From IMG/VR virus record IMGVR_UViG_3300037199_000067, positions 1-56,423 of that record: a stretch of DNA of 56,423 nucleotides; one strand, written 5' to 3'. Shown in pieces: positions 19,433-44,721 of the stretch (position 1 is the stretch's first letter; the number at the start of each line of letters is the position of its first letter). A model generated the notes under the pieces. The model saw only the letters and a program-made list of their open reading frames with translations. It ran no database searches and had not been told where the DNA came from. A program made the position numbers and the translations under genes. Source of the DNA: a virus (lineage: Duplodnaviria; Caudoviricetes).

Positions 19433-20170
19433 ATGCCCTATACCGTGCAGCCATTCAACCTCGCCAGTGCCTTTGGCGCGGGCCAGGAAATCAAGCAGCG
19501 CCGCCAGCAGATGGCGGAGGCGGAGTCCCGGCTGGCCACAGAGAAGCAGCATATCGAGGTGGCCGACCAGATTGAGAAGCAGCGCCAGCAGATCGCCGCG
19601 CAGACGGCTGCCCGCCAGTTCTCCGCTCGCAACCGGGTACAGGCCAAGATTCAGGCTGGCATGGACCCCGGAAAAGCGTATTTGTCGGAGCCTGATTTGT
19701 TTCCCACAGCGACCGGACTTGGGCCGTTTGCCACTTCGGTTGAAAAGGCGAACACACCAGTGCCACCACCTGCCCCGCTGTACGATTCCAAAGGTAACAT
19801 CATCGGTTACAGCGGAGCACACACGCATTTCATTCCTGCGCCAAGACAGGCCGCCGCCCCGAGACCGTCTCCAGAGGATTATAGCACTGTGACTTCAAAA
19901 TACCCAGCGGTCCCTGGAGTACCCGCACAAGCGGCAGTCCCGCCGTCGGGACATTTGTGGTGGGCACAGCCCGGATCACCAGCGCAGGCGGCCATCCCCG
20001 GACAGCCCGAGCGCACCGTGACCCAGCGCATCCCCATCGCACCACAGGGTGGCGACCAAACCAACCAGGACGAGGATGAATACACCTACCCCGCGCCGCC
20101 GGGAGCCACCAACGCGATGCCTGATAAATCTTTCAAGGTTGGCAGCTTTACGGTAACACCAATCCAGTAA
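19433..20170 (+). CDS. Putative internal virion/ejection protein
   Basis: Gln/Ala-rich coiled coil followed by Pro-rich tail; TAATG coupling to the next gene. Confidence 0.6.
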   Translation: MPYTVQPFNLASAFGAGQEIKQRRQQMAEAESRLATEKQHIEVADQIEKQRQQIAAQTAARQFSARNRVQAKIQAGMDPGKAYLSEPDLFPTATGLGPFATSVEKANTPVPPPAPLYDSKGNIIGYSGAHTHFIPAPRQAAAPRPSPEDYSTVTSKYPAVPGVPAQAAVPPSGHLWWAQPGSPAQAAIPGQPERTVTQRIPIAPQGGDQTNQDEDEYTYPAPPGATNAMPDKSFKVGSFTVTPIQ

Positions 20171-23100
20171 TGCCCGCTTTTGAAGTCACTGCACCAGATG
20201 GGAAAAAGTTCAGAATCGAGGGCGACCATGGTCCCAACGAAGCTGAGTTGCAGGACATTTATTCCAACCTGACCAAGAGTGCGGGGGCACCCGCGCCATC
20301 AACTCCCGCTCCACCAGCAGCACCACAAGCTGCCGTTCCCGCTCCACCAGCTCATGATGTTCCAGATGAGGCAAAACTGAGTGAGTGGCATCCGTCGCTC
20401 TGGAGCCGGTTCAGAAACAGCAGTATTGGACACAAAATCCTCGGCCCAACTCCAGAGGAACAGAGTCTGATTCAATCCGGTCAGGGTGGGCTGGCTGGAC
20501 CGCCCGGTGGCAATGCCGGAATCCTTCCGATTCTTTCACAGACACCTATCGGTCCCGGAGCGGAGTCGAAACTCGGAAAGGCCATCCTTGGCTACTACAT
20601 CGCCGCCTACGCCAAGAGCCAGCCGCAGCGCGTGAAGCAGATTTACCACGACCTGAAGACGGGCAATACGCGCGGCGCATACGGTGGAATGATTGAGGAT
20701 TTTCTCGGCGCGGGCATGACCGCCGGTGCCGCTCACGGTTTGATTTCATCGTTCCGAACACCAGCAACCAAAGGAGGTCCAAATGCCAGCAGTCAGCAAA
20801 AAGCAGCAGCGGTTCATGGCGATGTGCAGCCACAATCCGGGCCGGGCCCAAGGGAAGTGCCCGCCGAAGAAGGTGGCGGAGGAGTTCAGTCACAAGCCGA
20901 AGCGTTCCTGGACCAAAAAACACAAGTATCTGTAAACCCGTACCGCCTTGAGCGGACCGAGGATGGCAAGTACGTCATCACCAATCCAGCCGGCGAGGTT
21001 GAGGGCCAGCCCCATGACACCATCGTGGACGCCAAGGTGGCCCTCGACAAGCTCACCAGCCGCGCCGGAAAAGGTCAAAAAACGGCAACTGAGCCCGGCT
21101 CAATCACCGACGAGCCGATAGAAACTCCTGAAATGTACGCTGCGAGAGGCACCTACATTGACAGTGAGGACATGGTAAAGGCGTATCCACACCTGACCAG
21201 ACCGGAGGCGGCAGCGATAATCGCAAAGGTGCGCGGTGTTAAGAATGTTGCTGGAGCGGACTTACAGAAGGGTGCGGTCAAATCCATCACCGAGGACAGC
21301 GTTGAGCAGCTACCGGCGGATGAGCAGGTGAAGCTCAAGCACGGCGATGGTATCAAGTATGGCCTCACTCAAGGCGCAGGCGATGTGGAGCGGCTGCAAC
21401 AGAAGTACAACAAGGCCAGCGAGGAGATGAAGGCAGCTGCCGCAAAGGGAGACCAGGCGGCAATGCATGCCGCTTTTGGAAAACTGAACTTCTACGGTGG
21501 CGCGCTCATGGGTGCCACCCGTGGGACGCATCCGATTTCCGGCACTAACTACTCGCGGTATGTGGCCGAACATGGAGAGCCAGAGGCAGAACCTGGCGGT
21601 GTTGAATCCGAGCTGCCAGACGAACAACAGCAACTGTTCGATCACGAACGAAAGTCGGTGGACGTGCCGGTGGACATGCGCGAGCTGACCCCTGAAGAGG
21701 AAGAGGCGGCAGCAGGCAATCCATTCCTTCGTAATCTGCTCGGCAACGTCGCCACCATTGACCGTAAGAACGGCAAAATCGTCATCAACTTCAAGGAGTT
21801 CAAGGCGTGGCTGGACAACATCCCGAAGCATCAACAGCAACTGGCTATCCGGTCGGTGCTCAGTGAGGAGCGCATCCATCTGGCGGTGGATGATGCCTCC
21901 GCCAAGGCGTTCTACGATTCACAGACCGGGCTGGAGCAGGCCATTGGTAAGCGGCGGTATTTCGGACCAATTAGGAATGCGGAAGACCAAGCTGCATTCG
22001 ACAAGATGACGGATACACAATGGGGCCACGAGGCGCTCCGGTTCCGGTTACAACAGCTCACCCGCATGACGCCGCGCGAGATTGCAGAGGCGACGGGCCG
22101 CGAGAAGTGGACAGTCAAATCGCTCACCGCATTGGAATCCGTAATCCGTGGAATCCGGCAGAAGCTGGGCACCAAGGCTAGCGCCGAGGCCAATGCTATC
22201 CTCGACAAGATGGAAGCCAATCTCCGCATCGGTCACATCGCCCGCAGTGGGGCATCGCCAGCGGCCATCCAGAAGTCAGTGGAGCAGGTCAGCGAGGACG
22301 AGGCCGACAAGATTGAAAAGCAGGCTCAAATGTACGCCGAGTCCGGCGATGCCCAGTCGGCCAATGAGCTGATGCAGATGGCCAAGAATCTGCGCCAGTC
22401 GGCTCAGGAACAGTCTTTCCCGGCGGCCCGGCCCAAGAAGCGCACCGAATCGCTCTGGCAGGAGAAGTTCATCCTGCCGGGCATGGACACGCAGCGCGCG
22501 GCGGGCGGAACACTTGCGGTGCCTCCGGGCGGCGGCGAGACCCAGCCTGTGGCACCGACTGAGAGAGCCTCTGCGGAGGCGTCAGGCGCGCTGCCACGGC
22601 TCACAGGAGCTGCCTTGGAGGCTCGAGGCACCACATGGGTGCAGAAGGGCATTTCAGACGCTCTGGGGGCCATTGCGGAGGGAAAAACAGCTCCCCTGCC
22701 GACGTTCAAGGACTTTGCTGACTTCATGAAGCGGCAGCAATCTGAAGTTAAGCCCGGCCAGCTACATGAAATGTGGGCAAAAGCGGTGGGTGATTCTCTG
22801 GAAAAGGCTCCCGGTGAAGTCCTTGCAGGTTTGGTGAAGGCGACATGGGGTCGGCAGACGACGGAAGCGTCGTCGGTGGGCAAGAAATCCTTCTTTCGTG
22901 GCGTCATTTCCGGTGCCCAGAAGATTGTGGACAACCCGCCGCCGGGCGGGTTCAATCTGGAGTATGTGCCCGACCGGACAGCCGCCGAGCTGCATCAGGA
23001 TGAGCGGCGATCAGCAGGCTTGATACGCCAGCGCGAGCGCGTGATTGGCGCGCTGTACAACAAGCTGGTGCGGCCAACGATGCCAGACATCCGGCTGGAC

Positions 23101-26100
23101 GCAAAAACCACAACACCTGACGACCTGCGGTACGGTGGTGGCAAGCTGATTTCAGCGGTGCAGGACTTCGACCAGAGCGCCGAGCACAATGTGGAGCTGC
23201 TGGGGCGTGACCTTGTGGATGAAGCGCGGCGGTCATCGCGCGACCCGGTTACGGCCACCAAGCGGCTGACGGCCATTATGGACCGCAAGAGTGGCGAGGT
23301 GTACCTCGTGGGCACCTACAAACACCCCACGCGCGGCACAGTGCTCGTTGACCCGCTCTCGCCACAGAACCAGCACACGCCACTGGAGTCCATGCTCAAG
23401 CGGTATCGCGTCATCCAGTCAGTGCTGCGTGACCATCCCGTGCAAGGGTTCAAGGAACATTTCAAATCAATCACCGATTACAATGAGGCATTTGGCAATG
23501 AGGCAAAATCCCGTTACAACCAAGAGACCAGCTACGACCCAGCCACTGTTCCCGAAGCTCAGTTCATGGAGGAAGCTGGCGGTCGAATCGAGCGCGGTTC
23601 GGGAGGTTCCTTCCAAGGGCCACACAAAGAGCTGGTCCAGGAGAGCGGAGAAGGTTCTTTGGAAAAGAGCGGTCGGACGGCGATGACTGAGCCCGAGGCG
23701 CAGGCGATGATTGACCATGTGTTCAACGAGCGCGGCACGATTGATTCCGCCGACGATGTGCGCGAGGCGATGCTGGCGCTCAAGGATTCACCCAACCGGC
23801 AGGCGCTGTCCGGGTTCACCAAGCTGGCGCGCGGAATTCAGGCGAAGAATCCGGACATGTCCGCTGATGAGCTGCTGCGCGCAGTCGCCCAACGAGTTTA
23901 TGAAAACCACACCCAAGCAAAAAGCCTCGAAGAGTTCACTCGAACAACGCTGGCGGACAGCGGTGCCAAGGCTGGCGAAGCTGCTGAAACTGAAGCCCCC
24001 TCGAAAACCAGCCGCGAGCTAACGATGCTCAACCGGCTGCCGCCCACAGCCACCCGTGGTCAGGTGCTGCCACCGGGAGAACAGCCGCCCACTGAGGGAT
24101 TCGCGCCGGGAACTGAACCTCAAATCCTGACACCAGAGGAGCGGGAATACATTCGCACCCGCGATTGGGGCGAGGCTTCCACACCCGGTGGCGCAAGAGG
24201 GTTGGTGAACCGCCTTCGTGGAGAATCAGTAAGCGGCAGACGGTTCAATCCCCGCCCGCCTCAGCCGCCTCCGCAAAAGGGTCAGGTTCATTATTTCCCA
24301 TCAGAGGGCGAGTGGACGCCCGGCGCGCGGCGCAAGCCCACGCCTGCCGAGCAGTACCGCGCCCAAGCCCGCAAGCTGAGTGACGACCTGTTCCGGCTCA
24401 ACACTCAGTCACAGGCCGACGTGGAGGATGCCTTCCCGGAAATTGCCAAAATCCGGAAGGAGTACGACGAGCTGCCGCCGTCCGCTCCGGAGAACGTCTT
24501 CCGCAAGATTGAGGATGAGGTGGTGACCGGCCATTCGGACGTGAAGCTCACGCCGAACGAGCAGTCGCTGTTCGACCGGGCCGCCGCCATCCATGCCGAG
24601 AACGAGGAGATGTGGCAGCACCTCAAAGACCTGGAGATTCCAGTGTCTGAGAAGACCATTTTCCCACGCATGGCGCAGGACGTGAACAGCATCTTTGCGC
24701 GCGTGGTGCGCGGCGTGAAGCGTTCCATCACCGAGGGCACGATCCTCTCCAAGTCGGCGTGGTTCACCAAGCATCGCGTCATCAAGGCTATTGTGGACAG
24801 CGCGGGCAACCGGCGCATTGCCGCCATCGTGGCCGGCGAGAAAGGCGGCAAGCTCATCGCCTACGACCAAGGCAAGGGCACCGACATGGGGCCGTTCGCA
24901 TGGAGTGACATCGTGAAGCGGCAGGAGCTGCTCGATAAGGAGCTGGAACCCATTCTGAAGGAAGCGGACGAGCTCACCAATGAGCGGAACATTCTGGAGC
25001 GCAGCGAAGCCCGAGCGGCGGTGTCCAAGCGGCGCATCGCCAACATCAACAAGCGGCTGGGTGAGCTGTGGCACGAGAAGCAGGGCATTGAGGAAAACTA
25101 TCCGCTGGACGACCTTGAAAACCGCGTGTGGGCTGACAGCAATGGCAAGCAGTGGCGCCTGACCGACGCGACCACGACCGAGATCGAGCACAACATGGAC
25201 GTGCGGTATTACAAGGAACCGTTCTCCGTCCTGACCGCTCAGAATTTGAAGCTCAAGCAGATGCTGCGCTCCGCTGAATGGCTGGAGCAATTCAAGACCT
25301 CGCCGCAGTTCTCGCAGATTGCCCGGCGCTGGGATGAGCGGAACATTCCGCCGGGCTGGAAGCGCACCGAGTTGCCGCAGCTCCGCAACTTCGTGTTCGA
25401 GCCGCGCGTGGCCGATGTGCTAAACCAGTTCCATGAGCGCAGCAAGGGTCAGACGCCGAACATCCTTACAGCCACCAACCGGCTGCTGATGAACGCCGTT
25501 TTCTTCGACAATCCGTTCCTGCACAGCCCGAATCTGGCCGGCTGGTGGATGACCTCGCGCGGGGCGTGGGCGTGGATGAACCCAATGGCGTATCCGGGGC
25601 TGATGAAGACGGGCTTGCGCGCGTTCCATGATGTGGTGGAGAAGTCGCCGGAGTACGTCAACTACCTGCGGGCGGGCACGCCGTTGCAGAACACGCGGGC
25701 GCGGCAGTTCACGGAGAATATCACCAAGCTGCTGCACGACCAGTTGGCTGAAGACCCCTCGCTGGCCAAGCGCATCAGCAACTTTCTGGGGTACGCCAAT
25801 CCCATCAAGTTGTCGCAGACCCTGGGCCACGCCGCCACGAGCGGACTGCACGACATCCTGACCCTGCAACTCATTTACGAGGCGCAGGCGCGCGACCCGA
25901 AACTCAAGCCGCACGAGGCGATTCAAAAGGTGTCAGCTATCATGCCCGACTACCGGGTGCCGGCGCGAGTGCTGGGCTCCAGTTGGATTTCCAAGATTGT
26001 CACCAAACCCAACGCCGTGTGGTTCGGTGCGTACCATTACTCGGAGGGCAAGGCGTTCATGAACATGGCGAAAGGTTTGGTTGGTAGGGGAGACCTGTCG

Positions 26101-26916
26101 CGCGCAGAGGCTCTGGACAAGATTGCCGCCACTGCGCTCTTGATGGCGGTGGCGTACCCGCTCATGGATGACCTGCTAAAGAAGGTGACTGGGCGCAAGG
26201 ACCTCATGTTCCGGCGCGCGGGACCATCCACGATGCCCACCGCCGTCATGGATGTGATGAGCGGGAAGCGCACGCCGGAGCAAGTGGCCCCGAGCTTTGT
26301 TTCGCCAGCCGCCGCGACCGTGGCGGGCATCAGTCTGTTCTTCAACAAGAACCTGATGTTCGGTGGGCGCGGGTTGCCCATTTACAACTGGCGTCAGGGG
26401 GCGGGTGAGTCCGCCAAGCGCGTGGCCGGGTTCGCCGCGCAGTCGCTCAATCCAGTGCAGCTCTACCGGGACATCGGCAGTGGCCGTTACAACTGGGACC
26501 AGATATTTGAGAACCTCGCTGGCATCCGTAAGGATTACAGCACTGAGTCGGGCGCTCAGGTGTATGGCTGGGCGTATGACTGGGCTAAGCGCACGAACAA
26601 TCAGCGTCTGCTCAACCAATTCGAGCAGCGTTCCAATGAGGTGTTTGCGCCATCGAAGTACGAGAAGTTGAAGAACGAGCTGGGTGAAGACAGCAAGAAC
26701 AAGGCGCTGGTGGAGATTCGCCGGCTGTTGCAGTCGGGCACCACGCAGGAAGAGATGGAGCGCGAGTTGCGTCCGTCCGCGCATCCACTGTCTGGCTTGA
26801 AGGAAACCGAAGAGCCGTTCGTGCAGTCTCTCAGCCCAAGCCAGCGGCAGACCTACGAGGCGGTCATGGCGCGGCGTGAGAAGGTGTACCGAAACTTTTT
26901 GGAGTGGACGCAGTAG
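20170..26916 (+). CDS. Giant internal virion / DNA-ejection protein (2248 aa, large-polyvalent-like)
   Basis: Last gene of the structural arm; helical; zincin-like VLSEERIHLA segment; membrane-like C-terminal region. Confidence 0.75.
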   Translation: MPAFEVTAPDGKKFRIEGDHGPNEAELQDIYSNLTKSAGAPAPSTPAPPAAPQAAVPAPPAHDVPDEAKLSEWHPSLWSRFRNSSIGHKILGPTPEEQSLIQSGQGGLAGPPGGNAGILPILSQTPIGPGAESKLGKAILGYYIAAYAKSQPQRVKQIYHDLKTGNTRGAYGGMIEDFLGAGMTAGAAHGLISSFRTPATKGGPNASSQQKAAAVHGDVQPQSGPGPREVPAEEGGGGVQSQAEAFLDQKTQVSVNPYRLERTEDGKYVITNPAGEVEGQPHDTIVDAKVALDKLTSRAGKGQKTATEPGSITDEPIETPEMYAARGTYIDSEDMVKAYPHLTRPEAAAIIAKVRGVKNVAGADLQKGAVKSITEDSVEQLPADEQVKLKHGDGIKYGLTQGAGDVERLQQKYNKASEEMKAAAAKGDQAAMHAAFGKLNFYGGALMGATRGTHPISGTNYSRYVAEHGEPEAEPGGVESELPDEQQQLFDHERKSVDVPVDMRELTPEEEEAAAGNPFLRNLLGNVATIDRKNGKIVINFKEFKAWLDNIPKHQQQLAIRSVLSEERIHLAVDDASAKAFYDSQTGLEQAIGKRRYFGPIRNAEDQAAFDKMTDTQWGHEALRFRLQQLTRMTPREIAEATGREKWTVKSLTALESVIRGIRQKLGTKASAEANAILDKMEANLRIGHIARSGASPAAIQKSVEQVSEDEADKIEKQAQMYAESGDAQSANELMQMAKNLRQSAQEQSFPAARPKKRTESLWQEKFILPGMDTQRAAGGTLAVPPGGGETQPVAPTERASAEASGALPRLTGAALEARGTTWVQKGISDALGAIAEGKTAPLPTFKDFADFMKRQQSEVKPGQLHEMWAKAVGDSLEKAPGEVLAGLVKATWGRQTTEASSVGKKSFFRGVISGAQKIVDNPPPGGFNLEYVPDRTAAELHQDERRSAGLIRQRERVIGALYNKLVRPTMPDIRLDAKTTTPDDLRYGGGKLISAVQDFDQSAEHNVELLGRDLVDEARRSSRDPVTATKRLTAIMDRKSGEVYLVGTYKHPTRGTVLVDPLSPQNQHTPLESMLKRYRVIQSVLRDHPVQGFKEHFKSITDYNEAFGNEAKSRYNQETSYDPATVPEAQFMEEAGGRIERGSGGSFQGPHKELVQESGEGSLEKSGRTAMTEPEAQAMIDHVFNERGTIDSADDVREAMLALKDSPNRQALSGFTKLARGIQAKNPDMSADELLRAVAQRVYENHTQAKSLEEFTRTTLADSGAKAGEAAETEAPSKTSRELTMLNRLPPTATRGQVLPPGEQPPTEGFAPGTEPQILTPEEREYIRTRDWGEASTPGGARGLVNRLRGESVSGRRFNPRPPQPPPQKGQVHYFPSEGEWTPGARRKPTPAEQYRAQARKLSDDLFRLNTQSQADVEDAFPEIAKIRKEYDELPPSAPENVFRKIEDEVVTGHSDVKLTPNEQSLFDRAAAIHAENEEMWQHLKDLEIPVSEKTIFPRMAQDVNSIFARVVRGVKRSITEGTILSKSAWFTKHRVIKAIVDSAGNRRIAAIVAGEKGGKLIAYDQGKGTDMGPFAWSDIVKRQELLDKELEPILKEADELTNERNILERSEARAAVSKRRIANINKRLGELWHEKQGIEENYPLDDLENRVWADSNGKQWRLTDATTTEIEHNMDVRYYKEPFSVLTAQNLKLKQMLRSAEWLEQFKTSPQFSQIARRWDERNIPPGWKRTELPQLRNFVFEPRVADVLNQFHERSKGQTPNILTATNRLLMNAVFFDNPFLHSPNLAGWWMTSRGAWAWMNPMAYPGLMKTGLRAFHDVVEKSPEYVNYLRAGTPLQNTRARQFTENITKLLHDQLAEDPSLAKRISNFLGYANPIKLSQTLGHAATSGLHDILTLQLIYEAQARDPKLKPHEAIQKVSAIMPDYRVPARVLGSSWISKIVTKPNAVWFGAYHYSEGKAFMNMAKGLVGRGDLSRAEALDKIAATALLMAVAYPLMDDLLKKVTGRKDLMFRRAGPSTMPTAVMDVMSGKRTPEQVAPSFVSPAAATVAGISLFFNKNLMFGGRGLPIYNWRQGAGESAKRVAGFAAQSLNPVQLYRDIGSGRYNWDQIFENLAGIRKDYSTESGAQVYGWAYDWAKRTNNQRLLNQFEQRSNEVFAPSKYEKLKNELGEDSKNKALVEIRRLLQSGTTQEEMERELRPSAHPLSGLKETEEPFVQSLSPSQRQTYEAVMARREKVYRNFLEWTQ
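20783..20935 (+). CDS. Nested +1-frame small basic protein (50 aa)
   Basis: AAGGAGG-TCCAA-ATG; MPAVSKKQQRFMAMCSHNPGRAQGKCPPKKVAEEFSHKPK resembles a common small phage protein type. Confidence 0.6.
   Translation: MPAVSKKQQRFMAMCSHNPGRAQGKCPPKKVAEEFSHKPKRSWTKKHKYL
23900..24022 (+). CDS. Possible second nested +1-frame basic peptide (40 aa)
   Basis: TTTATG start context typical of this genome; MKTTPKQKASKSSLEQRWRTAVPRLAKLLKLKPPRKPAAS. Confidence 0.3.
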   Translation: MKTTPKQKASKSSLEQRWRTAVPRLAKLLKLKPPRKPAAS

Positions 26917-38377: not shown

Positions 38378-39254
38378 TTACTCCCCTTCCAGCTCTCGCA
38401 AGCGGTCAGGGTTATTGTTGAGAAGGTAATCGCGGATGCGCTCAATCAGTCGGTCGTCGTTGTAATCTACATCCCGGCCTTCACCGTCTCTGGTTTCAAA
38501 GTCCGAATACTCATACCCGTCATAGTCCGGGTCGCATGAAAGTCCCTCACTTGCCGCCTCGCGGATGCTGTCGCGCAAGTTTGAAACCACATCTTCCAGA
38601 GATTCGGCATCAAACAGTGCGCTATCGAGGTCAGCGACCATGATTGGCACTGAGCCTGAGCCGGAAGCGTTGCACACCCAGCGGGCAGGTGCCTGATTGT
38701 CTTTCTGACACGGCAGCATCAATCCTGAACGCTTCAGTGGGTCTGGCAGCACGACCTGCTACTGACGGATACACCTGACTCGGCACGCCCCTGCCTGCTT
38801 TTGGTGTGATGTTCATTTCCACCCATTCCTTGATGGCCTCAAAGGTCTGGTGCTCATCTGGTATGGGTATTTTGAGCTGGCTCAAAGCGTGCGCCCGAGC
38901 CACTGGATTGGTTGGCGCGACCTTGAGCAGCTCAATGACTGTGTTGCTCATGGCCTGCTCCAGTTTGCACTTGCGAGCGATGCCCGGCAGCTCTGGCTCT
39001 GCTGGCGCAGAGACTATTTGCTCACCATCGGGCACTTCACGGAACAGGTGGATTTCGGCGTTACCTGATGGATGGCAGTCGTCTATAAGTGTCCAATTTC
39101 CGTTGTAAACATAAGCCTCTTCAATGGGTAGTGTAGAGCCCCACATCGGTTCCCCCCAATACCCACTCGGACTCCAAATCAGGAATGTAGCGTTTGGGCC
39201 TAAACCCATGACGTTGGCTTCTGTGCATGGTAGTCTCTCAATTATCTGTCTCAT
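38378..39254 (-). CDS. Hypothetical protein of the Ubl operon, apparently split by a +1 frameshift near 38684
   Basis: ORFs 39254-38631 and 38752-38378 overlap; removing one C from TGCCCGC joins SERQSGTC to RWVCNASGSG. Confidence 0.5.
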
Positions 39255-39936
39255 TTGATTTTCCTTTCTCCAGTTGGTCTTTAATGCGGTGGCTTTCCAG
39301 TTTTGAAAGGTTGGCCACGAACTTAAACGGAAGCATGGGCATGGTCTCCTTGCTGAGCTCTGATGCCTTGATGCCCCACAGTACGAACAGGTTTTGCGCC
39401 AGTGCGGCGGCGCTGAAGTTTGCGCTCACGAGCTGGCGATTCTGCTGCTGGGCTTCTCCGGTACAGCCGGCGCTTGCGCGACGCGGGTCGCCGCTGCGGT
39501 CGGTGGCTATGATGGGATAATACACTCGCGGGTCGAGCGGTGTTTCCTTCCACGCGCGCCGATAATAGTACGCCTCAGATGACGTACTCTCATTGGCGGC
39601 GAAGATGGCTTGGCATCCGTACTGGTCGCAACTGTGCAGCACAGCCATCCGCGCCGGGTTGTTGTCCACACAGCAGAATATCCAGTCCGACGGGTCGTGC
39701 TCGATGGAGCCGGTGCCGTAGAACTCTGCGATGGCTTGGCAGCCGTACTTCTCAGCCAGTGCGGTGGCCTTGTTACTGCCCACCTGCTCAGGTGTGAACA
39801 ACTGGCGATTGAGGTTTTTGGTTTCCAGCGTGTCACCGTCCACGAGGATGATTTCCTGGGGCGAGCGCAGCAGGCACAGCGATGGAGCGAGCCATGAGCC
39901 CACGCCGCCGCAGCCGATGATGTAGTGTTTTCTCAT
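39238..39936 (-). CDS. E1/ThiF-family ubiquitin-like activating enzyme
   Basis: IIGCGGVGS, VDGD.LE.KNLNRQ, CVDNNPAR, candidate catalytic Cys in AGCTG. Confidence 0.92.
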   Translation of the reverse strand: MRKHYIIGCGGVGSWLAPSLCLLRSPQEIILVDGDTLETKNLNRQLFTPEQVGSNKATALAEKYGCQAIAEFYGTGSIEHDPSDWIFCCVDNNPARMAVLHSCDQYGCQAIFAANESTSSEAYYYRRAWKETPLDPRVYYPIIATDRSGDPRRASAGCTGEAQQQNRQLVSANFSAAALAQNLFVLWGIKASELSKETMPMLPFKFVANLSKLESHRIKDQLEKGKSNETDN

Positions 39937-41257: not shown

Positions 41258-41479
41258 TTACGCCTTCTGGTTCGCTGCCGTTTCCACGACCACCGTGGCA
41301 CCGTCAGGAATCAGAGTGTCGTCCGTCATGGCGACGCCGTTGATGAGCAGGTTGATGTTGTCACCGTACCCGAGCAGTGCTCGCAGGTTCGGATTGGACC
41401 GAACGGCGCCGATGGTGGTCGGCTGCTGATTCGACAGCTCGCTCGAATCCACGCCGTATTTGACTCTGTAACTTATCAT
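41258..41479 (-). CDS. Ubiquitin-like (beta-grasp) protein, 73 aa, C-terminus ANQKA
   Basis: YRVKYG...TTIGAV...LGY..NINLLING...DTLIPDGATVVV; first gene of the E2/E1/JAB block. Confidence 0.8.
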   Translation of the reverse strand: MISYRVKYGVDSSELSNQQPTTIGAVRSNPNLRALLGYGDNINLLINGVAMTDDTLIPDGATVVVETAANQKA

Positions 41480-41907: not shown

Positions 41908-42143
41908 GCGATTATCTCCATGTATTTGGCGTACAGCACCCAAGCCAGATACTCGGGCAGCGCGCCTTTGGCTTCCAGTTCGTCCCTGAACTGCTTCAGG
42001 TATTCGGTCAGCTCGGACACGATGCGACCGTCTGGCGAATCGTCTAGGATGCGCTCAACTTGTTCGATTTGCGCTTCGTCGAGCAGGTCGCCAATCGTGA
42101 CGGTCTTGGCCACGAATTCCGATTTGGGTGTGAGTTTTTTCAT
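41904..42143 (-). CDS. Hypothetical protein
   Basis: MKKLTPKSEF...; ATGA coupling. Confidence 0.65.
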   Translation of the reverse strand: MKKLTPKSEFVAKTVTIGDLLDEAQIEQVERILDDSPDGRIVSELTEYLKQFRDELEAKGALPEYLAWVLYAKYMEIIA

Positions 42144-42334
42144 GTGAGGTTTACTGGCTCTATCCAGCGGGCGGTTTTGTGTTTGCATCGCGGGCATCTG
42201 GCCGGCGAATTGTTGTCCAGCCCGAGCAATACGATGCGCTCGCAGCGGTCGCAATACCAGCCGCCGTTTTGTGCGAACTTCCGGAAGCTGGGCAGCAACA
42301 GGTAGTTTGTGTCCTGATGGACTTGAGTGGCCAT
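42140..42334 (-). CDS. Zn-ribbon protein
   Basis: CDRC...CPRC; TGATG coupling. Confidence 0.65.
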   Translation of the reverse strand: MATQVHQDTNYLLLPSFRKFAQNGGWYCDRCERIVLLGLDNNSPARCPRCKHKTARWIEPVNLT

Positions 42335-42537
42335 CACAAGCACGCAGGCTGCCGTTCCCAGGCCAGCTCAATGGGGTTGATGGGGATATGCTCTTTTCGC
42401 GCCAGGATGACCTGTGGCGCGTCGAAGACGAATTCGGCCCTTATGGAGCGAATGTCGCCTGTGGGCGTTGCGGTGATGCCACGGATGTGCGCGTTTGGGG
42501 CATCCAGCACTGTCTCTGGCTTCAATAATTTGCTCAT
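42334..42537 (-). CDS. Hypothetical protein (67 aa)
   Basis: Operon packing. Confidence 0.55.
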   Translation of the reverse strand: MSKLLKPETVLDAPNAHIRGITATPTGDIRSIRAEFVFDAPQVILARKEHIPINPIELAWERQPACL

Positions 42538-42583
42538 GTCTGTTCTTTCTCTGTTGTACAGCTTGTGGTTGATGAAATAAAGT

Positions 42584-42613
42584 GGGCTGCCCAGCCCGAA
42601 GACTGAGCAGCCC
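42584..42613 (-). terminator. Stable hairpin with cUUCGg loop, probable terminator
   Basis: GGGCTGCTCAGTC-TTCG-GGCTGGGCAGCCC followed by ACTTTATT. Confidence 0.65.
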
Positions 42614-42657
42614 GTTGCCGTCGTGCGCCAGCTCCTTATTCCGGCGCGCGAATCATT

Positions 42658-42888
42658 TTAGTGCTTGGCCCCCAGGACCGCTTCGCCAGTGAGATCGGGC
42701 GAGGGCAGTTCAGCCAACTGCTTGCGCCAGCCGCAGATGCTATGCTCTTGCAGCCGGATGTTTTCCTGCGCTTGCAGGATGGAGCGAATCAGGGTGATGG
42801 CCGTCTGACGGCTCGGCGTTACCAGTTGTCCAGCCGGCGCGCCTTTGCCGTCAGCTTCAATCAGTGCCTGTACTTGTTTTGTGTCCAT
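42658..42888 (-). CDS. Hypothetical protein (76 aa)
   Basis: ORF with A-rich upstream region. Confidence 0.6.
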   Translation of the reverse strand: MDTKQVQALIEADGKGAPAGQLVTPSRQTAITLIRSILQAQENIRLQEHSICGWRKQLAELPSPDLTGEAVLGAKH

Positions 42889-42901
42889 TTTCTGTTTTCT
42901 C

Positions 42902-43411
42902 CTATGCTCCCGAACGGCTCTTCGCCACGCGGGAAAGTGGTGGACTGAACGGGAATCGAACCCGCGATAATTCGGTGTTAGGGCAAAGCTCGATTTCAGT
43001 GCTACTCAAGCTCGCACCGACCCGGAATTTTCCTTCACGAGTCCAGACGTGGAGTGCGCCGGATTTTATCGCCATGTCGCTTCGGTATTGGCCGAGCGTG
43101 TATTCTTTGGCGTGGCCGTATGTTTTCGCTGCGGGCATTTTCCATTCGATGTCATCGGAGCAGCACGAGCAGATTTCCACCGGCTTTTGTTTCCTCACGC
43201 CGATTATCGCCATCATCGCCCAGCCAGAGTCATGCTTCTTTCCAGTGCTGACGATTAGGAGCGAGTCGTATCGCGGGCTATCGTCATCCCATTTCCGATG
43301 GGGCAGCGCGAGGAGGGCGGCACGCGGCCACTCGTTGACGCTTTGCCCTAACCAATCGGTGCAGCCAACAGCCGCCGCGCTTTTCCGTTTCGTTGCGTTT
43401 TTCTTCTTCAT
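42902..43411 (-). CDS. Hypothetical cassette protein (169 aa); start codon inside the attC loop
   Basis: CTTATG start in attC5; YDSLLIVSTGKKHDSGWAMMAIIG core. Confidence 0.7.
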   Translation of the reverse strand: MKKKNATKRKSAAAVGCTDWLGQSVNEWPRAALLALPHRKWDDDSPRYDSLLIVSTGKKHDSGWAMMAIIGVRKQKPVEICSCCSDDIEWKMPAAKTYGHAKEYTLGQYRSDMAIKSGALHVWTREGKFRVGASLSSTEIELCPNTELSRVRFPFSPPLSRVAKSRSGA

Positions 43412-43465
43412 AAGTTTTCAGTGTCGGCCACGCCACTCCCCGGCGGCTGTGGCTGACCTTTTTCG
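42978..43465 (+). mobile_element. Single integron cassette (488 bp)
   Basis: 5' core GTTAGGGCAAAGC is the exact 13-bp reverse complement of GCTTTGCCCTAAC at its attC. Confidence 0.88.
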
Positions 43466-43471
43466 TTATCC
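43346..43471 (+). other. attC: attC site 5 (126 bp)
   Basis: CCCTAAC...GTTATCC; arms GGTGCAGCCAACAGCCGCCG / CGGCGGCTGTGGCTGACC with extra G and A. Confidence 0.9.
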
Positions 43472-43590
43472 GGCGACTAGGCCACTAGCCACTTATCCAG
43501 CCCATTGTGCATCACATTGAGGCACAAAGAGAAACGCAGTCATGTTGGCTGTCCATGCTGCGTTTGTGCTTTGTGTCCAGGGCCTGATGA

Positions 43591-44055
43591 TCAGGCTTCG
43601 ATGGCCTTTTTGCCTTTGACGCTTTCTTCAGCGCGTTCCAGGAGCGCCATGCGTTCGTCTTCGGGCAGTTCGGCCAGCGCTTTGACAATCTGTTCGCTGG
43701 TCACTGTCCGTTTGTCCGCAACGCTCATGAGCGCCAGCGTGAACCGTTTGACGCCGGCTTTGTTGCGGGTCACTGCGACCCGCGCGCCCGTCCATTCGGG
43801 CGACGCCGCCATCTTGAGCGCTTCACCGATGCCGATTTCCTTGATGCGGTTGGACGTGGCAAGGATCGCCTCATCCAGCGCGCTCGATTTGGTCGGCAGT
43901 TGCAACCGTTTGGCCATGTCGCGCCGGCTTTCCAGCGTGAGGGACAGGCCAACGACCTGTTTGTCGGCATTTTGCCGCGTCTTCTGGACGAAGCCAACGT
44001 CCAACGTGCCCGGTTGCGTGAATTGGAACAGTTCCAGTGTGTTATTTGTGTTCAT
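43591..44055 (-). CDS. Hypothetical early protein
   Basis: Clean ORF MNTNNTLELFQF... Confidence 0.7.
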   Translation of the reverse strand: MNTNNTLELFQFTQPGTLDVGFVQKTRQNADKQVVGLSLTLESRRDMAKRLQLPTKSSALDEAILATSNRIKEIGIGEALKMAASPEWTGARVAVTRNKAGVKRFTLALMSVADKRTVTSEQIVKALAELPEDERMALLERAEESVKGKKAIEA

Positions 44056-44149
44056 CTGTCTTTTCTCCATTGCCGCAGCATAATTGCCACGGGGAGCAAT
44101 GCGATTGCTTCCGCTCGACCGTCAAAGCGAACCGACCGGAAGCATCACA

Positions 44150-44323
44150 TCAGACAGGTTTCACGTCATCAGGCACCATCTCAAACAGCCACCGAGGCTG
44201 ATTTGCCAAGCCCCAGCGTATCTGTTCATCACTCAAGGGCATCGGCAACGCCTTGCGCTTTACCCGCGCAGGACGCTTGCTGACACGCTTGCGCGCATCT
44301 TTCAAGTCAATCGTGTATTGCAT
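44150..44323 (-). CDS. Possible small basic protein (57 aa, below the ORF-track cutoff)
   Basis: MQYTIDLKDARKRVSKRPARVKRKALPMPLSDEQIRWGL... Confidence 0.4.
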   Translation of the reverse strand: MQYTIDLKDARKRVSKRPARVKRKALPMPLSDEQIRWGLANQPRWLFEMVPDDVKPV

Positions 44324-44415
44324 ATCATGTCACCATCCTTCCAACCATAAAGCGAGTGATACTCAGGAATAACCACTTGACGACTCGAATAATCCATGGC
44401 AAAACCAGTGGAGGC

Positions 44416-44721
44416 ATGAGTTATCCAGCCGCATATGTCCAGATGCTTTCTTTCCAAGAGCTTGCCGCTGAACGGGCGAGAGACGCCAGCAACGCCGACA
44501 CCGCAAAGCTCATGCTGGCTTGGGAGAAACTCGAACGTCTGAAGCGCGAGATGCGAGGCATCCCACCACTCAAGGCAATCGACTCACCCAAGTGGCCACG
44601 CCGCGCGCGCGCCAAGCTCATCGACGCCGGCGACGCTGCAATCGAAATCGAGAGCAAGGAATCTATTTCGACCCCGACCGTGACCGCACCGCCCACGCCG
44701 CCAGCCCCCAAGGCGACCTGA
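44416..44721 (+). CDS. Hypothetical protein, lone plus-strand gene
   Basis: GGAGGC-ATG with TTGACG upstream; helical basic protein. Confidence 0.6.
   Translation: MSYPAAYVQMLSFQELAAERARDASNADTAKLMLAWEKLERLKREMRGIPPLKAIDSPKWPRRARAKLIDAGDAAIEIESKESISTPTVTAPPTPPAPKAT

Follow-up and report, generated by a model that had tools for sequence, protein, structure and literature searches.

Split and disrupted transfer RNA (tRNA) genes, tRNA mimics and transfer-messenger RNA (tmRNA) are all already known. Bacterial tRNA genes may carry group I introns with open reading frames (ORFs), and archaea have split and intron-containing tRNAs; in a laboratory design for small RNAs, namely, the engineered tRNA scaffolds, a foreign RNA replaces the anticodon arm, and we know of no natural counterpart of these scaffolds that holds a messenger RNA (mRNA). 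Here we analyse a locus of the phage record IMGVR_UViG_3300037199_000067, whose whole length of 56,423 bp is referred to as the window, in which a protein gene lies between two pieces of a tRNA-Ala-like gene; the pieces and the gene together are referred to as the unit (positions 42937 to 43503, minus strand). The nearest described kind of RNA, in a comparison made by description only and implying no membership, is taken to be the allo-tRNAs that occur in soil Acidobacteria and in phages (Mukai et al., 2017, PMC5389517); their 12-bp acceptor branches are arranged 8/4 or 9/3, and their D stem is long and closed by a tetraloop. According to the same paper (PMC5389517), some allo-tRNAs have G3:U70, are charged with alanine and insert it, and one allo-tRNA pseudogene overlaps a transposon-related ORF. 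Fragments of tRNA genes left by integrating elements have also been described (van der Gulik et al., 2023, PMC9897764).

An original prediction, made from the letters of the window, held that an attC cassette splits the tRNA-like gene and that its precise excision rebuilds this gene. The split gene stands, since some 490 nt with a protein gene do lie between alanine-type ends, but nothing points to an integron cassette or to tRNA-rebuilding excision. The reading that we adopt, and to which we give an even chance, is that a tRNA-Ala-mimic gene belonging to a dispensable module has a foreign gene nested in it, without restoration.

An alanine-type frame at the ends of the unit

On the minus strand, the two ends of the unit carry several of the tRNA-like features that had been predicted (Table 1). 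First, the acceptor strands form seven pairs, including G3.U70 and G7.U66, with an eighth pair possible, and they are completed by the discriminator A73 and an encoded CCA; the residue preceding G1 is T. Second, the T-arm is canonical, as claimed, and the 56 kb genome has no other that convinces. Third, the long D-like stem was recovered in the fold with 8 bp and a UGGC loop, and the 16-nt core of this hairpin holds two (43477 and 43485) of the 14 CTAG sites of the genome. The same core was found in three viral contigs, in unrelated contexts, and these matches were judged to be due to chance.

In the partition function of the 566-nt RNA, pairing probabilities are about 0.99 for acceptor pairs 1 to 6, 0.74 for pair 7, and 0.43 for the possible pair 8, an A.U pair that competes with the fifth and last pair of the T stem (0.43 versus 0.47). 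The acceptor is retained in both the minimum-energy and the centroid fold of this full-length RNA, although the fold of the whole unit is not unusually stable (z = -1.5). The Rfam tRNA model matched the 3' piece only, below threshold, at 17.6 bits versus a gathering score of 29. At gathering scores, Rfam gave no match in the window, and ARAGORN called 0 tRNAs and 0 tmRNAs in its whole 56 kb. No second copy of the 3' tRNA fragment was found in the genome.

The unit is present or absent as a whole

Near-identical DNA is present in peat and permafrost metagenome runs, and contigs from four runs, which may drop rare variants, were placed on 42300-44200. Across these contigs the unit shows one low-depth difference only. 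In one contig of run X3 (depth 2.7), position 42953 reads G>T, which would break the T-stem pair G53:C61 and may be a sequencing error. A DNA contig of run X4 (171 nt, depth 69.2) runs from 43578 to 43504, then through four other letters, and then from 42936 to 42895; the same run also holds the ORF-bearing form, in a contig of depth 23.7. A co-occurring phage variant lacks exactly 42937-43503, that is, everything from the predicted 5' end of the RNA to one base past the CCA.

The joint in the X4 contig formed no part of the evidence behind the original prediction, and it is therefore an independent test that the two pieces belong together. The acceptor 7-mer GGGCTGG lies exactly at one boundary of the indel, and the CCA end lies 1 nt from the other. 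In the genome, 100 of 112,834 7-mers are able to pair with TCAGTCC, or about one per 1.1 kb of one strand; the one at the boundary is the only one within 1.5 kb upstream, and the chance that a pairing 7-mer falls within three nucleotides on either side of a fixed point is 0.006. Because the indel boundaries coincide with the predicted ends of the RNA, we conclude that the two pieces belong to a single unit and form its termini. The joint expected from excision that rebuilds a tRNA (43466|42977) is absent from the contigs of the four runs, in which rare forms may be lost and of which one shows the whole-unit deletion (42936>43504). A mobile segment limited to the inner 488 nt was likewise rejected, since the whole unit is missing in the X4 contig.

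These boundaries bear on two other explanations. According to the first, the 3' piece alone would be tRNA-derived, a fragment such as those at the attachment sites of integrating elements, and the 5' half would be an unrelated hairpin that pairs by chance. Pairing 7-mers are indeed frequent enough for this, the Rfam tRNA model chose an internal acceptor partner (43002-42996), and tRNA gene fragments from integrated elements are common (PMC9897764). However, we consider it very unlikely, as the 5' 7-mer is found exactly at the indel boundary and is the very one with which this 3' strand is paired in natural tRNA-Ala genes. Furthermore, the fragment is single-copy in a genome with no integrase, and the exact 3' end, searched as 22- to 24-mers, is absent from both viral_contigs and genome_contigs. 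According to the second, a processed RNA was retro-inserted, which would agree with boundaries that are RNA ends and with an encoded CCA, but nothing else supports it and PF00078 is absent from the genome.

Within viral_contigs, no empty site (the two flanks with a gap of 0-30) was found, nor was a second split unit with the same acceptor at a spacing of 520-549. The X4 contig that lacks the unit also lacks the 76-aa gene at 42658-42888, which is a second gene-sized indel. Six filler letters at this second joint equal positions 42539-42544 of the window, and the second deletion is therefore really 42545-42894; it spans from just before the start codon of the 76-aa gene to just before the ribosome-binding region of the next gene. 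Contigs of the RNA run X5 cover parts of the region and show breaks near 43425-43436 that recur in DNA runs, from which nothing is concluded, as contigs cannot show ends.

The nested gene belongs to a family of free-standing phage genes

The ORF between the two pieces is a real gene of a widespread phage protein family. Its residues 1-148 (to about 42972) share 72-75% identity with homologs in two viral contigs (L003 and L004) and 49% with a homolog in a third (L005). Together with 36 metagenome loci obtained by profile search, these three viral loci make 39, all free-standing, with proteins of 109-174 residues in which the KHDSGW motif is invariant and the DDI.W and SST motifs are conserved. 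The AlphaFold (AF2) model of the protein is confident and all-beta, with a predicted local distance difference test score (pLDDT) of 86.5. The protein had no match in Pfam, weak matches only in PHROG, no sequence match in the PDB below E = 0.25 and no usable match in the Atlas; a Foldseek search with the model returned nothing at E <= 0.001 in the PDB or BFVD.

Nucleotide homology to the ORF begins at 43417 (L003) and extends to 42972 (L004), with none to either locus upstream of 43417; therefore, only 48 nt of the insert are not related to the ORF. The start codon lies 93 nt from the 5' end of the unit. No stop codon for the ORF is present within the unit, and the tail of the protein is translated from the tRNA-like 3' piece, including T-arm and CCA, and then from the flank, where a TAG is reached after 34 nt. 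A tRNA-like piece was seen at none of the other loci of the ORF family (0/39). In loci L001-L041, namely, these 39 together with the window's own (L001) and L002, ARAGORN called no tRNA, and a regular expression for the T-arm matched only the window's copy and two opposite-strand sequences without CCA (L010 and L030), judged to be due to chance; in L041 the ORF runs off the end of the locus, which leaves its 3' side outside view.

A stem of 15 bp with one bulge, formed by 43441-43455 in the 5' untranslated region (UTR) and 43362-43377 in codons 12-17 of the ORF, encloses the start codon. Since no Shine-Dalgarno sequence is visible by eye, this stem may control translation.

Table 1. Features of the unit and its flanks, and related viral loci. 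Positions are those of the window.
Feature	Position	Strand	Basis or remark
Whole unit: 5' tRNA-like piece, 5' UTR, ORF body, 3' tRNA-like piece	42937..43503	-	Presence/absence polymorphism (X4 contig)
Acceptor-stem 5' strand GGGCTGG (43496 may add an eighth pair)	43497..43503	-	Sequence and fold ensemble
D-like hairpin, 8-bp stem, UGGC tetraloop	43473..43492	-	Fold
Linker and 5' UTR, including GATAA (43466-43470) and the 5' arm (43441-43455) of the 15-bp stem	43412..43472	-	Fold, nucleotide comparison
ORF, 169 codons, ATG start, TAG stop (42902-42904)	42902..43411	-	Homologs, AF2 model
3' arm of the 'attC' repeat, perfect 13-bp long-range pairing with 43340-43352	42977..42989	-	Both arms coding (WLGQS, ELCPN)
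T-arm GCGGG / TTCGATT / CCCGT	42949..42965	-	Sequence, Rfam, fold ensemble
Acceptor 3' strand TCAGTCC (42948-42942), discriminator A73 (42941), encoded CCA (42940-42938)	42938..42948	-	Sequence, Rfam
Upstream flank, kept in the unit-less variant; terminator-like hairpin after the 159-aa gene	43504..43578	-	X4 contig
Downstream flank, kept in the unit-less variant; last 11 codons and stop of the ORF, ribosome-binding site of the next gene	42895..42936	-	X4 contig
Non-cloverleaf viral RNAs with tRNA-Ala acceptor (G3.U70) and standard T-arm			L045, L048, L050, L051, L056, L059, L060, L061, L065 (80 nt each); L046; L047; L049; L057/L062; L063

Excision, splicing and other mechanisms

According to the original prediction, an attC cassette sits at a simple site in an anticodon stem-loop, and excision at G|TT could switch the locus between an RNA and a protein. 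An attC site is an imperfect palindrome that measures about 60-140 nt and immediately follows the ORF of its cassette. The join was computed correctly, with G|TT at both 42977|42978 and 43465|43466; each junction has GTTA, and the arms of a 13-nt inverted repeat end in ..CCCTAAC / GTTAGGG... However, no attC-sized palindrome was found downstream of the ORF, and this 13-nt repeat (42977-42989 and 43340-43352), which is the only matching one, has arms 350 nt apart that both lie in the conserved coding sequence and are also found in homologs without tRNA context. Moreover, the anticodon-like loop CACCGAA consists of the codons for N-T-E (..CPNTEL) of the conserved phage protein, shared with its homologs. 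Homology to L004 reaches 42972, and therefore both this loop and the right-hand crossover are gene-derived sequence.

The rebuilt tRNA itself did not fare better. The GATAA/TTATC stem is missing from the minimum-energy fold of the joined sequence and has a probability of 0.05 in the full RNA, and position 33 in the loop of the join, which comes from the coding sequence of the ORF, is A and not U33. When folded, the joined sequence is not a cloverleaf, and ARAGORN is silent on it. As for the recombinase that the switch would need, PF00589 and PF00239 are both absent from the phage genome; the PF00589 search was validated by positive control genomes, and it gave no tyrosine recombinase of the IntI type in the phage genome, although a host-encoded enzyme might act in its place. 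Taking all these counts together with the contigs of four runs, which show the whole-unit joint only, we find an attC switch scarcely credible.

More generally, PF00589, PF00239, PF01797, PF01844 and PF00078 have no match anywhere in the 56.4 kb phage genome, which is devoid of integrase, resolvase, Y1 transposase, HNH and reverse transcriptase domains. An element like IS200/IS605, with subterminal hairpins at both ends, was considered and rejected, as PF01797 is absent and the right 'hairpin' is a textbook T-arm.

An intron, either of group I or of the bulge-helix-bulge kind, could carry the ORF, with a mature tRNA then produced by RNA splicing, and the position in the middle of a tRNA together with the internal ORF does recall tRNA introns with homing-endonuclease genes. 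This we hold to be highly improbable: Rfam gave no match to group I or any other ribozyme at E up to 10, the insert has only 48 nt that are not ORF, and ARAGORN in intron mode returned nothing from 43503 in this region. Furthermore, no bulge-helix-bulge was seen by eye at the junctions, the other genes, for example RecT, look like those of a bacterial phage, and the ligated product is without a standard anticodon arm.

A giant tmRNA-like RNA, in which an alanine-charged domain would deliver a long frame to stalled ribosomes, fits the topology of tRNA-like ends (G3.U70, A73, CCA) around an ORF, and it fits an ORF that starts 93 nt from the 5' end without a visible Shine-Dalgarno sequence. But the tmRNA models of both ARAGORN and Rfam are silent, and lowering the ARAGORN threshold yields a permuted call on the other strand only. 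The ORF, in turn, has an ATG, is homologous to ordinary free-standing genes and has no stop inside the RNA, which makes this explanation barely plausible.

The acceptor recurs in tRNA-Ala genes and in non-cloverleaf phage RNAs

A relaxed pattern made of the acceptor strands and the T-loop only matched 21 viral loci and at least 120 cellular loci. Among the cellular matches listed, ARAGORN called 103 of 120 as tRNA-Ala and left 5 of 120 uncalled; because of these 103, the acceptor is, judging from its sequence, of the tRNA-Ala type. One of them, a Terriglobia tRNA-Ala (L087), has the same 3' end, TCAGTCCACCA. In the three genomes to which L087, L105 and L134 belong, the 5' piece was not found.

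The viral matches gave another picture, with six of 21 called as tRNA by ARAGORN, one of them as Ala, and 15 uncalled. In the folds of these 15, the acceptor and the T-arm come with one or two odd hairpins, whereas an anticodon loop is missing; about 10 of the RNAs represent one near-identical family. From the 15 uncalled loci it follows that phages carry non-cloverleaf RNAs with this acceptor (Table 1). At gathering scores, Rfam gave no family in any of the six of these viral loci that were searched, and the RNAs may be an undescribed class of phage tRNA-Ala mimics.

Genome setting

The record is a complete virus with direct terminal repeats of 127 bp, and it codes for RecT, a DUF2800 nuclease-like protein, a superfamily-2 helicase and a ThiF-family protein. 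All neighbouring genes around the unit are on the minus strand, and the unit, with a G+C content of 0.564, does not stand out from the genome as a whole (0.573). A promoter scan gave 0 promoters, and terminator-like sites were not commoner than in shuffled sequences. A blastn search of GenBank phages with 42000-44500 returned no match. The closest relative found by way of the neighbouring 159-aa gene (L002, in the 56.7 kb genome G001) has neither the unit nor any tRNA.

CTAG is strongly avoided genome-wide, with 14 sites observed versus about 211 expected from base composition. The ThiF-family (E1-like) protein is encoded at 39238-39936 (minus strand), and two genes away, at 41258-41479 (minus strand), lies a 73-aa ORF that by eye has a small ubiquitin-like beta-grasp look; together they may make up a ubiquitin-like conjugation set of the phage. 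The presumed structural region contains a very long ORF (20170-26916, plus strand) with 2,248 codons.

How the nested arrangement may have arisen and what it may mean

In the reading that we adopt, a lytic-type peat phage with direct terminal repeats would carry the unit as an accessory module that it can do without. The frame of the module would be a non-cloverleaf mimic derived from tRNA-Ala, with acceptor, G3.U70, A73, CCA, T-arm and a long D-like tetraloop hairpin. The clean boundaries would be most simply accounted for if this mimic had come in before the ORF, as a functional gene with sharp limits; joints in mosaic phage genomes tend to fall at the borders of functional units. The anticodon and variable region of the mimic would then have given way to a phage gene of foreign origin, free-standing elsewhere, and 48 nt of its own leader, probably lodged by illegitimate rather than site-specific recombination. 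The insertion would have cut off the gene's own C-terminal tail and stop, with translation now passing through the T-arm and CCA and ending 34 nt outside the unit. We read the event as an accident because the tail and stop are lost, because there is no target duplication beyond the 4-nt GTTA, and because neither a recombinase, nor an intron core, nor an attC was found.

What the data show is the anatomy of the unit, the nesting, the indel of the whole unit and the lack of recombinase genes and of an intron core; we infer that the frame came first and the gene second, and that the frame no longer decodes. No splicing or excision would restore a tRNA, and variants would differ by the whole module only. 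The ends of the transcript should still pair, and a cut by RNase P followed by trimming to the CCA would be plausible on general grounds. Such CCA processing leaves a message without a stop, and processing and full translation would therefore be mutually exclusive.

Several observations weigh against this reading. First, no intact allele was found anywhere: flank-to-flank matches with a gap of 66-96 nt numbered 0 in viral_contigs, and the uninterrupted allele that the original prediction called for in related phages was thus not found there between the same flanks. Second, the 5' piece, at up to three mismatches, was present in 0 of 401 sampled Acidobacteriota genomes. Third, the empty site is known from one contig in one of the four runs. 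Fourth, all stems of the frame are perfect and the contigs of the four runs differ in the unit at one low-depth position only, which would suit a functional RNA and a very recent origin equally well. Fifth, the boundaries fall exactly on the RNA ends, as expected if both ends are needed together, and this is unexplained by a dead relic unless the frame arrived working before the ORF did. The evidence on the frame comes from one lineage, without covariation.

In a rival explanation, the frame still works. The mRNA would be held as in a bracket between the strands of an alanine-type minihelix, with an RNase P cut at 43503/43504, CCA trimming and charging by AlaRS all possible, and the ends would stabilise, mark or regulate the message; alternatively, the RNA would be a tRNA-Ala decoy that tolerates the insert. 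G3:U70 minihelices are substrates for charging by AlaRS and for cleavage by RNase P. Here, G3.U70, A73 and CCA are intact behind a T that precedes G1, the ends pair in the full-length ensemble and in both of its representative folds, the boundaries of the unit are the predicted RNA ends, and a CTAG-rich hairpin has been kept in a CTAG-depleted genome. The 15 of 21 viral RNAs with this acceptor but without a cloverleaf point in the same direction, in that anticodon-less alanine-type mimics seem to be a phage theme. On the other hand, this is a single instance, with such ends in none of the other ORF loci and no other split pattern at the same spacing in viral_contigs; a CCA-trimmed RNA would be a non-stop message, the low-depth change in the X3 contig would break a T-stem pair, and the whole-unit fold has an ordinary z score. 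We consider a working frame possible but, on the whole, rather unlikely.

More specifically, the unit might be a natural tRNA-scaffolded message, whose ends would fold into an alanine-accepting minihelix on which RNase P, the CCA enzyme and AlaRS could all act. The message would then belong to a larger, as yet undescribed group of phage RNAs that mimic tRNA-Ala but have no anticodon; this we regard as improbable. If it were true, the scaffolded ends could protect the mRNA, mark it as self against host defences directed at tRNA or mRNA, or feed it to ribosomes in a tmRNA-like manner. If the frame works, it would be the first natural mRNA in a tRNA-like scaffold known to us, and would link phage tRNA mimics to mRNA processing, stability or ribosome rescue. 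If the frame is only a wreck, it would still be a clean example of how phage modules are built and lost, with a gene dropped into a tRNA-mimic gene and gain or loss of the block. Either way, phage RNAs with a tRNA-Ala acceptor and T-arm, no cloverleaf and no Rfam family merit a study of their own.

Comparison with known systems

In narrow searches of the literature, we met with no account of a phage tRNA-like gene that has a protein gene nested inside it. Against the kinds of RNA introduced at the beginning, the locus compares as follows. With the allo-tRNAs (PMC5389517), the frame shares a long D stem with a tetraloop (here 8 bp and UGGC), G3.U70, which is found in some of them, a soil or peat setting and, perhaps, the 8/4 split. 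However, it is without their long anticodon and variable arms, having about 490 nt with a complete protein gene instead, and it gives no tRNA-Sec match in Rfam at E up to 10. With tmRNA (SsrA), the likeness is that the two ends of the unit form an alanine-type domain (G3.U70, A73, CCA, T-arm) around a reading frame; it differs in that the ORF has 169 codons, an ATG and free-standing homologs, with no tag, no stop within the RNA and no detected pseudoknots, and in that neither ARAGORN nor Rfam recognises the unit as such.

Intron-bearing tRNA genes likewise consist of two pieces with an ORF in between, but the unit has neither a ribozyme core nor a bulge-helix-bulge, nor room for either, and the rejoined product is no cloverleaf. 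Fragments left by integrating elements (PMC9897764) resemble it in placing a T-arm and acceptor portion beside unrelated genes, whereas the unit has a matching 5' strand, is single-copy and comes with no integrase. As in integron cassettes, there is a promoterless-looking single-gene unit with GTT at the junctions, but the attC palindrome and IntI are missing and the arms of the repeat are coding. Finally, like the engineered tRNA scaffolds, the unit carries a foreign RNA within an intact acceptor and T-arm frame.

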